Assembly: GCA_965648905.1 (NCBI GenBank)
Contig: CBFGIT010000003.1
Location: 64,001-128,000 of the forward strand
Length of the DNA stretch: 64,000 nt
DNA from: a candidate division WOR-3 bacterium
Lineage (GTDB): Bacteria; Hydrothermota; Tepidihabitantia; Tepidihabitantales; Tepidihabitantaceae
Direction: 5' to 3'
Shown: one piece after another, positions 51,262 to 54,793 of the stretch
Numbering within the stretch: the first letter of the stretch is position 1
Layout: every line of letters starts with the position of its first letter
Program-made: the position numbers and the translations under genes
The notes under the pieces: generated by a model
The model's input: only the letters and a program-made list of their open reading frames with translations
Databases searched by the model: none
Told to the model about the DNA's origin: nothing

Positions 51262-51567
51262 ATGGACCAAGAACCAAGAGCTGCAAGACGGGCGTTCAGT
51301 CCGCAGGAGAAGCTGGAAATACTGCTGGAGGGCGCGACGACCGGCAACGTTGCCGAGGTCTGCCGCCGCCGTGGGTTGAGGGTCAGTATGTACTACCGAT
51401 GGCGGGCCATGCTGTTCAAGCATGCCGGCGCTGTGTTCGCACATGGCAACGGCGGGACAGGCCAGTGTCAGGTCGCAGCACTGGAAGAGCAGTTACGCCG
51501 TAAGAACGCGGTGATCGCCGAGTTGACCCAGGAGAACCTGGACCTAAAAAGGGGGCGCTGGCATTGA
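51262..51567 (+). CDS. IS3-family OrfA (HTH)
   Basis: FSPQEKLEIL...VAEVCRRRGL...YYRW; coiled-coil tail ENLDLK. Confidence 0.85.
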   Translation: MDQEPRAARRAFSPQEKLEILLEGATTGNVAEVCRRRGLRVSMYYRWRAMLFKHAGAVFAHGNGGTGQCQVAALEEQLRRKNAVIAELTQENLDLKRGRWH

Positions 51568-52625
51568 GTGACCATCCCCGAGCTTTGAGCGAGAACTTCA
51601 ACCAGGTTGCCGCCTGGGTCGAAGCGACCCGGCAGCGCAGCGGCTGGCCGGTCCGCACTATTCTGGCCAGGCTGGGCATCACGCCGGCACGCTTCTATCG
51701 CCTGCGCGCCCGACAGGCGGTTGAGGTCGGCATCCGAGACGACGCGCAACTGGTGCGCCGCAGTGTCCGGGAACTGCTGCCTGAAGAGCGGATGCTGGTC
51801 CTGGACTATGCTTTGGCCTTTCCGGACTCACGTCATCGGGCACTGGCCTATGAGCTGGCTGATGCCGCTATCGTGTGCGCATCACCCGCGACAGTCTATA
51901 GGGTGTTGAGCGAGAAGGGGTTAGTTCCTGGCGGGCGGGCGGAGCGGGCGGCGGTGACAAGCGGGTCTGACCGTAGGCGGGCGCGACTGCCGGACGAGCG
52001 CTGGCTGTTGGACTGGACCTATCTGACGATCGTCAGGCGCTGGTGGTATCTTTTCTACCTGATGGACGAGTACTCGCGGTACGTGGTTCACTGGGAGCTG
52101 TGCTGGCGGATGGACGAGTCGGCCACGACCGCGGCGATTGAGCGTGCGCTGATGGTGCCGGGACGCAAGCGGCAGCCATCGATCCAGACGGACAACGGGC
52201 CGGCCTTCATCAGCCGTGACTTCAAGAGCTACCTGGCCGGGCATGGCATCAGGCACGATCGGATACATCCCAACTGCCCTCAGGAGAACGGGATTGTCGA
52301 GCGTGGCATCCGGACCTGCAAAGAGCTGGCTGGTGACGAGTTCGACGAGGTCGGACTGGCGCGGATTGAAATCGGCCGGGCGGTTGAGTACTATAACTGC
52401 GAGCGGCGGCACAGTGCGCTTCAGTATCTGCGGCCGATCGACTACTATCGTGGTGACCCAGAGGCTCTGCTGGTGGCACGGGCTCGGCGCATGGCGGCGG
52501 CCCGGGAACACCGCCGGCAGACTAACCTGGCCTTCAACCGCGCGTCACAGGACCGGTGGAAACGGGCCGCAAAACAGGCAGAGGACTCCCTAAATCCGAT
52601 GCCCGTTTTGTCTCATTTCGCGTGA
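51564..52625 (+). CDS. IS3-family OrfB DDE transposase
   Basis: WLLDWTYL, DEYSR, TDNGPAF, PQENGIVER, YYNCERRHSAL; -1 frame to orfA with TTGA overlap. Confidence 0.9.
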   Translation: MSDHPRALSENFNQVAAWVEATRQRSGWPVRTILARLGITPARFYRLRARQAVEVGIRDDAQLVRRSVRELLPEERMLVLDYALAFPDSRHRALAYELADAAIVCASPATVYRVLSEKGLVPGGRAERAAVTSGSDRRRARLPDERWLLDWTYLTIVRRWWYLFYLMDEYSRYVVHWELCWRMDESATTAAIERALMVPGRKRQPSIQTDNGPAFISRDFKSYLAGHGIRHDRIHPNCPQENGIVERGIRTCKELAGDEFDEVGLARIEIGRAVEYYNCERRHSALQYLRPIDYYRGDPEALLVARARRMAAAREHRRQTNLAFNRASQDRWKRAAKQAEDSLNPMPVLSHFA

Positions 52626-52802: not shown

Positions 52803-53000
52803 TCAGTTGTCGGGCTGGGATTTGTCGCGGACGACCGGTGGAAGCTCGCTGCTGCGCCGCCGGGCCCGCGACTCGGCGGCGCGCGTCCGGAGCTGCCGCA
52901 GCCACTCGTCCACGCTCAGCCCATCCCGAATCCGCTTCTCCTCGGCCTCGCGCCGGACCTTGTGCAGCCACTCCATCCAGTCCAGACCATCAATCTTCAT
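52803..53000 (-). CDS. Small charged protein, probable partner (antitoxin) of the upstream PIN protein
   Basis: 65 aa, overlaps the PIN gene end; position only. Confidence 0.5.
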   Translation of the reverse strand: MKIDGLDWMEWLHKVRREAEEKRIRDGLSVDEWLRQLRTRAAESRARRRSSELPPVVRDKSQPDN

Positions 53001-53471
53001 AGAGCACCACCTGTTCAGGCGTCCTGATATTCACAAACTGATACCCCTCGCGCAGGTTGACCGCATTGAGCCTGCGCTCGGCCCACTCGTTCGCCAGATG
53101 CCTTAGGTTCAGAGAGACGATGACGTCGGCGCGGCCGACAGTTGCGAAAGCGGCGTGCCGGGCATCCAGTACCTCGACCGGAGGGATGACTCCGTCTCGA
53201 ACGTACAACTCGGCCAGCCGGGTCACCTCCGCCTCATCCGCGTCGAGTACGTCCAGTTGGTCGAGCAGTGCGAGCAGTCTTGACCGCACGGGTTCGGCGG
53301 TCTGGCCGAGCTCCTCCTCAGCCAGCGGCGAGACCGCAGCGTTCAGCAGGCCCATCGATAGCTGTCGGAACATCGCCTGCCTGCTTCCCGTCGGACGGCG
53401 TTCCGTGGCTCCTCGTCGAAGTAGAAGCCGAAGACCGAAGTCTCGATGTAGTGCAGGGGCTGGTGTTCCAT
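52990..53471 (-). pseudogene. PIN-domain (VapC-like) gene with 1-nt frameshift
   Basis: ATG 53471 gives MEHQPLHYIETSVFGFYFDEEPRN...; the rest (DARHAAFAT...IVSLNLRHL...IRTPEQV) is in another frame from about 53375. Confidence 0.7.
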
Positions 53472-53768
53472 TGGCTCAGGATAGCCGGTTCCTCTCCGGT
53501 GTCAAGCGCATGGCGAGACTCTGAGTCCGAGGTTGAACCACCGTGGGCAGAAAGGAACGGACGCGGCCAGCAGTGAGAGCTTCCGGACTTCTGCGTTCTG
53601 GCTTCTCGCGTCCACCTTTGACCGGGCGCAGGTCACACCGGGCTCTGTGGCTGACCTTGTGTCGGCTCCAAGCCCGGCCTTTGTGTTCTTGGTGCGCTTG
53701 GTGGTTGAGTGCCGGAATCAGGAGAGCCGGCCCGAGTCGGGCCGGCTCTCGACACTGAAGCTGCCGGG

Positions 53769-54653
53769 CTAGTGGACCACGCGCAGACGCACGGTCTCGG
53801 TCTGCTCCGGGGTCCGAACCGTGCAGTAGTAGACTCCAGGCTGGTAGCCGGCAGTGTTGATGTTCAAGGACGAACCCTGAGCCTCAATCGTCTCGACCGC
53901 GCGGCCGGTCGCGTCCCGCACGGTCATGGTCATGGGGCCGGATGCGCCGTCAAGGCTGATTGCTGTCCTGCGGTCAGCCGGGTTGGGCAGGCATCGTACC
54001 GTCGGCACGGCACGGGCTGGCCGAGCTTCGCTGATGCCACTGACCGGCACAAGGGTGATGTCGTCGGCGGAGACCTCCGCCCACGGCGACCCTCAGCCGC
54101 CTGAGGTGCCGGCGTAAACCGACACCTTGAGCTTCTGGACAAAGCGAATCGGAACGTCGGGCAGGTTCTGGGTCAGTTCGTCGTAGACGTTTATCTGGAA
54201 CCGGTTCCATTCGGTGTTGGGCACCTGAATCAGATGGCTCGTGCCGGTGGAAACCCAGTTGCAGTACGGGCTGGGGTAGTAGAATCTGGTGTCGCCCTGA
54301 AAGGCGTTGTCACGGTCGTAGTAGCCGAGAATCACCGCCGAGACCGGCCAGCAGGTCGAGGAGCCGGCCCCGAGGTTCATTTTGGCCCAGAATGAGAAGT
54401 CGAGGTTGAGGTTCGTGACGCTGACCATCTGGTCGAGCGCGGTCGAGCCGGCCCCGAGATACTGCTGCAGGTATGCCTCATAGTCCGGGTCCGGGTGATA
54501 GCCGGTTCCCCGGTCAAAAGTGTGGGTTCCGGCCCCGACCGGGTTCTGGGTCCAGCCGACCGAAAGGTCCTGCTCAAAGTCACCGTTGACGAGCAGGTTC
54601 TGGCCCAGGGCAGACCCAAGCACAAGCAGCGCACATAATAGCAGTCTAGACAT
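53769..54653 (-). CDS. Secreted candidate selenoprotein (U187): carbohydrate-binding-like beta-sandwich plus C-terminal sorting domain
   Basis: GGAGG RBS before ATG 54653; signal peptide, NLLVNGDFE; TGA 54093-54095 reads through in frame (GTSGG-U-GSPWAEVSADDITLVPVSGISE) into LPNPA...DATGR...GVYYC; SECIS-like hairpin. Confidence 0.7.
54060..54092 (-). promoter_or_regulatory. Candidate bacterial SECIS element
   Basis: UGA + 11 nt + GGCGGA-GGTC-TCCGCC, lower stem GTCG/CGAC. Confidence 0.6.
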
Positions 54654-54793
54654 CGACGAACCTCCAGTTAGCATTGACACATGATAGCCGATGGCCGGCC
54701 CGAGTCAAACCGGGCTGCCATCCGTTCTTGACATGCTGCATCCGGACACTATCTTGGAGTCGTGCAGTCTGCCTCATTTGCCCCGGACCGCTG

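Follow-up and report, generated by a model that had tools for sequence, protein, structure and literature searches.

A conserved in-frame UGA, probably read as selenocysteine, in a family of jelly-roll proteins with predicted type IX secretion signals

The gene and its predicted product

The window analyzed here is a 64,000-nt stretch of DNA (contig CBFGIT010000003.1) from a candidate division WOR-3 bacterium, whose genome we refer to as G000; coordinates are positions within the window. On its minus strand lies a gene with a single in-frame TGA (54095..54093) that, on the comparative sequence evidence set out below, is very probably decoded as selenocysteine (Sec) by the ordinary bacterial mechanism. 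A first-pass annotation of this DNA had held that the reading frame continues past the TGA at 54093-54095, and direct reading bore this out, the frame remaining open to a TAG at 53771..53769. The TGA is codon 187 when counted from the ATG at 54653 and codon 196 when counted from an upstream GTG at 54680; the start at the ATG agrees with the N-termini of homologues. Read across the TGA, the peptide is ...YAGTSGG-U-GSPWAEVSADDITLVPVSGISE..., or, in a longer form of the same junction, TSGG-U-GSPWAEVSADDITLVPVSG. The gene and the parts of its predicted product are as follows.

53769..54653, minus strand: whole putative selenoprotein gene, 294 codons, from ATG at 54653 to TAG at 53771..53769; Sec would be codon 187
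54093..54095, minus strand: UGA probably read as selenocysteine (Sec187), from the conserved TGA column and an independent contig
54661..54665, minus strand: Shine-Dalgarno-like GGAGG, 7 nt 5' of the ATG, putative and assigned from sequence
54603..54653, minus strand: predicted Sec-type (general secretory) signal peptide, MSRLLLCALLVLGSALG, judged by eye; the predicted local distance difference test (pLDDT) score is low over residues 1-20
54045..54602, minus strand: jelly-roll beta-sandwich resembling a carbohydrate-binding module (CBM), residues 18-203, from AlphaFold2 (AF2) and Foldseek; its last strand, WAEVSADDITLVP, is encoded 3' of the UGA
54351..54353, minus strand: codon of Cys101 (in GSSTCW), candidate partner of Sec187, near-invariant in alignment A4
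53784..53987, minus strand: type A C-terminal sorting domain of the type IX secretion system (T9SS), residues 223-290, from TIGR04183 and PF18962

With the UGA read as Sec, the product would be a 294-residue exported protein composed of a signal peptide, a CBM-like jelly-roll and a T9SS type A sorting domain, and Sec187 would sit in the turn before the last jelly-roll strand. The window copy is thus a short form, with the jelly-roll domain and the sorting tail only.

We modeled the protein with AF2 from a 40-row alignment, reading through the Sec site. The model had a mean pLDDT of 90.6 and placed strands 174-184 and 191-203 on either side of the Sec turn; the second of these lies past the turn, in agreement with the earlier claim that the last strand is completed after the UGA. 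A low-confidence linker (residues 207-216) leads to a second beta domain, the sorting tail. In the Protein Data Bank (PDB), Foldseek placed a CBM4 structure (3k4z, E = 5.8e-10) and the CBM16 structures 2zew and 3oeb (TM scores of 0.63-0.66, per target) at the top, with other jelly-roll modules next in the list. The model is an all-beta jelly-roll and not a thioredoxin fold. The domain also has NGDFE at its N-terminal end and an ADD strand at its C-terminal end, features typical of CBM4-, CBM16- and CBM22-type modules. Searches of Pfam and NCBIfam found no family matching the N-terminal 200 residues, and no CBM family even at E values up to 1.

The part encoded after the TGA matched the T9SS type A sorting domain above cut-off in both models searched, scoring 34.4 bits for TIGR04183 (cut-off 23) and 28.6 bits for PF18962 (cut-off 27), as expected from the first-pass description of a C-terminal sorting domain beyond the UGA. 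The genome encodes a SprA homologue (456 bits summed, above cut-off), and its PorV-like barrels all fall below cut-off (best 77.5 bits compared to 250). Because it carries both a signal peptide and a T9SS sorting domain, the protein is predicted to pass first through the Sec translocon and next through the type IX system, ending up on the cell surface or in the medium. Termination at the UGA would yield a product lacking both the last strand and the sorting signal, and it is reasonable to infer from this gene layout that export may depend on selenium.

The TGA column is conserved across the family

We searched G000 and 272 genomes of its phylum in six frames, reading through stops. In G000, the domain is spanned by 8 matches, every one with a single TGA and always at the same column; 6 further matches cover the sorting tail only and have no TGA. 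With the TGA taken as U, the alignment of these 8 paralogues reads ...G-U-GxPWA(E/K)V(S/F)ADD..., with conserved flanks. Phylum-wide, the column has TGA in 150 of 150 among the matches listed, and the search gave 354 matches besides these. The first-pass annotation had raised the possibility that homologues carry Trp, Arg or Gly at this position; what they carry is a conserved TGA, with conservation on both sides.

Protein databases show the family cut at this codon. A word-indexed search over lengths of 166-531 aa returned 58 homologues, all of 181-198 aa and all ending at one column, and a profile search of 1.84 billion representatives returned 211 proteins at E ≤ 0.001 (~211 clusters at 50% identity); the U column was the protein end in 160 of the 205 family proteins that were scored. 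In a scan of genome contigs, we found at least 16 family loci. At 39 of 40 distinct sites, the frame was open for 107-534 codons past the TGA and was conserved, the lone exception being a short paralogue that stops 27 codons past it. A contig from a public run spans 53763-54588 at 96% identity and has no listed difference within 54066-54095, so the TGA is present in independent data, which answers an earlier concern about read support. One RNA run and one other DNA run contained nothing matching the stretch.

Taken at face value, the truncated entries would mean that the TGA is a real stop giving a 186-residue product, with the downstream frame a relic or a separate gene, or that the locus is a pseudogene or an assembly error. 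All public annotations do end the protein at the TGA, and TGA also serves as an ordinary stop in the family, ending 11 of 35 complete family genes; TGA is thus not globally reassigned. A real stop is at odds, however, with the presence of TGA at the column in 8 of 8 paralogues and in 150 of 150 of the relatives listed, with a downstream frame that is open and conserved at 39 of 40 sites and encodes both the last strand and a sorting domain scoring above cut-offs, and with retention of the TGA in the independent contig. Together, the conserved TGA, the open frame, the use of TGA as a true stop and the independent contig exclude sequencing error, recent nonsense mutation and an altered genetic code for practical purposes, and we regard termination at this codon as extremely improbable.

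A conserved hairpin follows the UGA

Two RNA elements described in the first-pass annotation lie at or near the UGA.

54066..54081, minus strand: core hairpin GGCGGA-GGUC-UCCGCC of a putative selenocysteine insertion sequence (SECIS), after an 11-nt spacer; its loop begins 17 nt after the UGA
54091..54106, minus strand: CCUCAG-GCGG-CUGAGG stem with the UGA inside, present in the window copy, not conserved

The first, said to begin 11 nt past the UGA, is found there (54081..54066), and RNAalifold, applied to 40 aligned sequences, predicted a 6-bp stem as the sole structure. The second, the CCUCAG/CUGAGG stem, is likewise present as described but did not hold up as a conserved element, and we rejected it as such: only 54.2% of its cells paired across 40 relatives, compared to 99.6% for the downstream hairpin.

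At 69 of 70 distinct sites, divergent members included, we found an NGUN loop on a stem with 5 or more of its 6 pairs formed. The spacer measured 11 nt at 44 sites; it was 14 nt long at 20 others and 17 nt long at 4, with one mis-pick at 8 nt. The loop sequence was GGUC in 62 cases and AGUU in 5. Across sites, the loop begins 17-23 nt 3' of the UGA, inside the range of 16-37 nt from the UGA that is given for bacterial SECIS loops in PMC10778597.

For covariation we used an alignment of 68 sites, leaving out L039 (mis-picked) and L068 (without hairpin). Two-sided changes occurred at 4 of 6 pairs (36 cells), a level matched in 0 of 500 shuffles. The alternation of E-V-S and K-V-F in the peptide corresponds to GAG/UCC versus AAG/UUC, which turns a G-C pair into an A-U pair, and a silent GCA/UCU variant makes a like swap at the adjacent pair. 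Synonymous sites were also constrained: third-position entropy was 0-0.40 bits over codons +4 to +9 compared to 0.83-1.95 bits in flanking codons, and Ala +9 was encoded by GCC in 38 of 38 sequences, whereas Pro +3 used all four codons. In the mechanism that we propose, the UGA would be read as Sec, with the 16-nt hairpin 11 nt downstream acting as a SECIS that recruits SelB with Sec-tRNA(Sec).

Some relatives read across the column with a sense codon. Among the 211 profile matches, 13 such forms were aligned; Cys occupied the U column in P0061 and P0075 and Val in P0088, and several others had a Cys nearby or none. Cys-containing homologues, which had been suggested as something to look for, therefore exist (2 of the 13 read-across forms examined, out of 211 matches) and are rare. 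The AEVSAD peptide is relaxed in the read-across forms, a pattern that fits an RNA constraint acting only where Sec would be used.

Of 51 matches from a crude genome-wide scan for TGA followed by a hairpin, most were noise, the genome being GC-rich; 7 of the 8 paralogues were recovered. The scan is not suited to counting the selenoproteome.

Co-occurrence with the selenocysteine machinery

The 3.01-Mb genome, which is 99.6% complete, encodes selA (560 bits), selB (348 bits), two selD genes and a tRNA-Sec with anticodon UCA; the machinery that the first-pass annotation named as a point to verify is thus present. A domain-only query found the family in 106 of 272 phylum genomes, and selA was found in 122 of 272. 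From a comparison of the two lists, selA is present in 100 of 106 family-bearing genomes and in 22 of 166 genomes without the family, counts that are descriptive only because related genomes are not independent. Families of the phylum that lack selA (e.g. f6, 0 of 11; f15, 0 of 14) also lack the protein family, and the five genomes with the most divergent members all have selA, two of them being already counted.

The two selD genes (C4:87631-88554 and C8:88040-88942; loci L008 and L009) each have one in-frame TGA and so are selenoprotein genes themselves, and the C8 copy adjoins selB (C8:89013-90884). Within the phylum, several genomes of different families have a member of the jelly-roll family within ~0.3-6 kb of selA or selB (e.g. 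G131:C137, G133:C1, G197:C14, G198:C133, G113:C48 and G162:C37).

A number of observations weigh against decoding as Sec. The conserved stem is only 6 bp, the local fold of the window copy is not unusual compared to shuffles (z = -1.14), and a longer lower stem in its minimum-free-energy fold pairs in only 70% of cells. In Rfam, nothing matched the hairpin above chance level (E ≥ 1.2). The hairpin was not seen at the genome's two selD genes, where the downstream folds differ, although as an internal control these genes say little either way. The most divergent member, L068 (3104-3150, plus strand; 23% identity; CGGR-U context), has TGA at the column and no canonical GGC...GCC hairpin. The 68-site alignment was chosen by a hairpin finder that needed at least 5 of 6 pairs and its 100% pairing is therefore partly circular, leaving the compensatory changes and the synonymous-site pattern as the non-circular evidence for the hairpin. 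Among public RNA runs, none was listed with the gene. Finally, selA was not found in 6 of 106 family-bearing genomes at the first search; five of these were rechecked (the sixth, G160, was left out), with selB above cut-off in three and selA fragments in three, two of them at contig ends.

A short hairpin might also stimulate readthrough with insertion of a standard amino acid, such as Trp or Cys from a near-cognate tRNA, and from sequence alone the inserted residue would be indistinguishable from Sec. The near confinement of the family to selA genomes (100 of 106) argues against this proposal, as do the spacing and GU loop expected of a bacterial SECIS, the Cys found at the column in two relatives and the retention of a partner Cys at 69 of 70 sites described below. 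We therefore consider insertion of a standard residue very unlikely and take Sec as the probable residue at position 187 in what follows.

A possible cysteine partner for Sec187

Most family members retain a Cys in one of a few positions. Of the 160 proteins cut off at the U column, 67 had the TCW Cys and none immediately before U, 77 had a Cys immediately before U (C-U) and no TCW Cys, 2 had both and 14 had neither, 3 of these last having CxxU. The 70 read-through sites, which include sequence beyond the UGA, gave a similar picture: 46 had the TCW Cys only, 3 had it together with a nearby Cys, 20 had only a Cys within 4 residues of U (in C-U, CxxU, UxxC, UxxxC or C-U-xxx-C arrangements) and 1 had none. 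Thus, 69 of 70 sites keep a Cys that is either the TCW one or no more than 4 residues from Sec, and the TCW Cys is absent where a Cys neighbors Sec.

The window copy has a GG-U-G context with no adjacent Cys and the distal Cys101 in GSSTCW. The description of the protein as having no redox motif accordingly holds for the window copy and fails for relatives with CU, CxxU, UxxC or UxxxC. Two Cys partners had been suggested for Sec187; the one in GSSTCW is found in more than 90% of the rows of alignment A4, whereas the one in SPYCNW is often replaced by Ala. The partner of Sec187 would be Cys101 in the window copy and a Cys adjacent or no more than 4 residues away in relatives.

These arrangements suggest a joint action of Sec and a single cysteine. 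Speaking against it, a FastTree phylogeny of 144 proteins had 4 changes of the TCW Cys and 9 of the U-1 Cys, with only 2 independent pairs on supported branches; because independent switches are few, the mutual exclusivity of the two Cys positions rests on few events and is not statistically testable. On balance, the likeliest account of these alignments, at slightly better than even chances, is that Sec187 and one Cys form a selenenylsulfide-forming or thiophilic site.

What such a site might do can be read in other ways. The main functional rival is that the Sec/Cys site binds a thiophilic metal or metalloid in place of cycling between redox states as a selenenylsulfide. CU is the commonest arrangement in database members (77 of 160), and bioRxiv 10.1101/2022.07.06.499078 describes CU as rare, tied to heavy-metal interaction and found also in extracellularly exposed proteins. 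The window copy and 67 of 160 relatives, however, lack CU and have a distal Cys instead, and we saw no other conserved Cys or His cluster among the invariant columns. We judge a metal site possible and on the unlikely side.

Less likely, and in our estimate improbable, is a purely structural Se-S bond that would stabilize the last hairpin of the extracellular domain as a cross-link. The protein is predicted to be exported, and its partner Cys in the window copy lies far away along the chain, an arrangement also seen in structural disulfides. For roughly half of the family members, though, the partner is adjacent to Sec or 3-4 residues away, where an Se-S bond cannot cross-link distant elements, and Sec is a costly residue for a purely structural role.

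Long forms and gene arrangement

Three long paralogues in G000 (616, 640 and 706 aa) share the N-terminal Sec domain and the sorting tail of the window copy. These are L014, L016 and L019, on C1, C14 and C30, with the 616-residue form on C1; the C14 and C30 forms share a conserved middle region (WVEIR...SICGNGW...). The middle regions of the long paralogues (350-450 residues) had no match in Pfam, where the sorting tail alone was matched.

Family genes often occur as tandem or divergent pairs, typically with a short form of ~300 aa beside a long form of ~650 aa. Pairs were seen at L032, L033, L052, L059, L060 and L091, and G146:C5 has three copies. The locus L063, labeled Candidatus Latescibacterota in public records, has the same coordinates as a locus of G161, a genome in the window's phylum, so the two labels disagree.

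In the window, plsY, gpsA and a gene for a MerR-type regulator lie upstream, on the opposite strand. Downstream are an rve-type transposase (51564-52625, plus strand; 70 bits) and a weak PIN-domain open reading frame (52990-53373, minus strand). We saw no functional link between the selenoprotein gene and these neighbors (PlsY, GpsA, the MerR-type regulator, the PIN-like protein and the rve transposase).

Discussion

The family is large, secreted according to its predicted signals, and uncatalogued in the sources that we checked, to which the list of families in BSepDB did not belong. Four of its motifs were absent from the deep-Sep supplementary files, including the 108-row table of known families (first 400 characters per cell), and NCBIfam (release of June 2026) offers no model that matches the domain. 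A 2026 review (PMC13188914) contains none of the words 'secret', 'carbohydrate' and 'sorting', and the accessible parts of the literature on WOR-3 selenoproteins, or on selenocysteine together with type IX secretion, contained nothing on the family. The first-pass statement that the protein belongs to no recognized selenoprotein family thus stands for the deep-Sep files, NCBIfam and this literature.

Since almost all database entries for the family are truncated at the UGA, the phylum's gene catalogues, the sizes given for its selenoproteomes and the predictions of its secretome are systematically wrong. The regularity of the hairpin and its imprint on the peptide (A-E/K-V-S/F-A) offer a simple handle for searches, and so compact an element could suit testing in Escherichia coli.

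We put forward tentatively, as a possibility that goes further than the assignment of Sec, that the domain is a new extracellular selenoenzyme module in which a Sec-Cys center on a CBM-type beta-sandwich would be displayed at the surface via type IX secretion, either alone or fronting varied cargo, in at least 8 copies per genome, and would carry out selenium-dependent chemistry on external, perhaps insoluble substrates (sulfur or polysulfide, metalloids or polymers, for example). If this were true, a large share of the secretome of an uncultured phylum would be selenium-dependent, and if the Sec-Cys site were catalytic, extracellular selenium-dependent chemistry in anaerobes would become directly testable.

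Comparison with known systems

The closest parallel for decoding is the bacterial SelB/SECIS system, with E. coli fdhF as its prototype. In its minimal form, the fdhF element consists of a 17-nt stem-loop, set 11 nt downstream of the UGA, whose loop has an essential G and U. The present family resembles this system in having an in-frame UGA, a 3' hairpin within the coding region, a GU loop at 17-23 nt, and SelA, SelB, SelD and tRNA-Sec; it differs in that its conserved core is limited to 6 bp of stem and a 4-nt loop, that we saw no bulged U and that a lower stem is not clearly conserved.

CU-motif selenoproteins (the SAO system and HgcA; bioRxiv 10.1101/2022.07.06.499078) are similar in that their database entries end at a perfectly aligned Cys before the UGA and some are exposed outside the cytoplasm; the present family has C-U in 77 of 160 proteins. 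The folds of CU-motif proteins (MerB-like, ABC substrate-binding and others) are unrelated to that of the present family and the two share no gene neighborhood; the window copy, moreover, has GG-U-G with a distal Cys in place of CU. For CU-motif selenoproteins, Haft and Gwadz propose binding of thiophilic metals or metalloids (bioRxiv 10.1101/2022.07.06.499078).

Some relatives have CxxU or UxxC, as do the thioredoxin-fold selenoproteins (Trx, Prx-like and DsbA-like) covered in PMC13188914. The present family, in contrast, has a CBM-like jelly-roll, and the position of the motif varies and lies in the turn of a beta-hairpin.

The fold itself is most like that of CBM4, CBM16 and CBM22 modules (3k4z and 2zew), sharing a beta-sandwich jelly-roll (Foldseek E = 5.8e-10 to 3k4z); the difference is that the present family has no Pfam CBM match at E up to 1. 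We know of no CBM that contains Sec. Known bacterial selenoproteins are mostly cytoplasmic redox enzymes with many Cys-containing relatives; the present family stands apart from these in its predicted export, its non-thioredoxin, CBM-like fold, its almost invariable occurrence in the putative Sec form and its many copies per genome.

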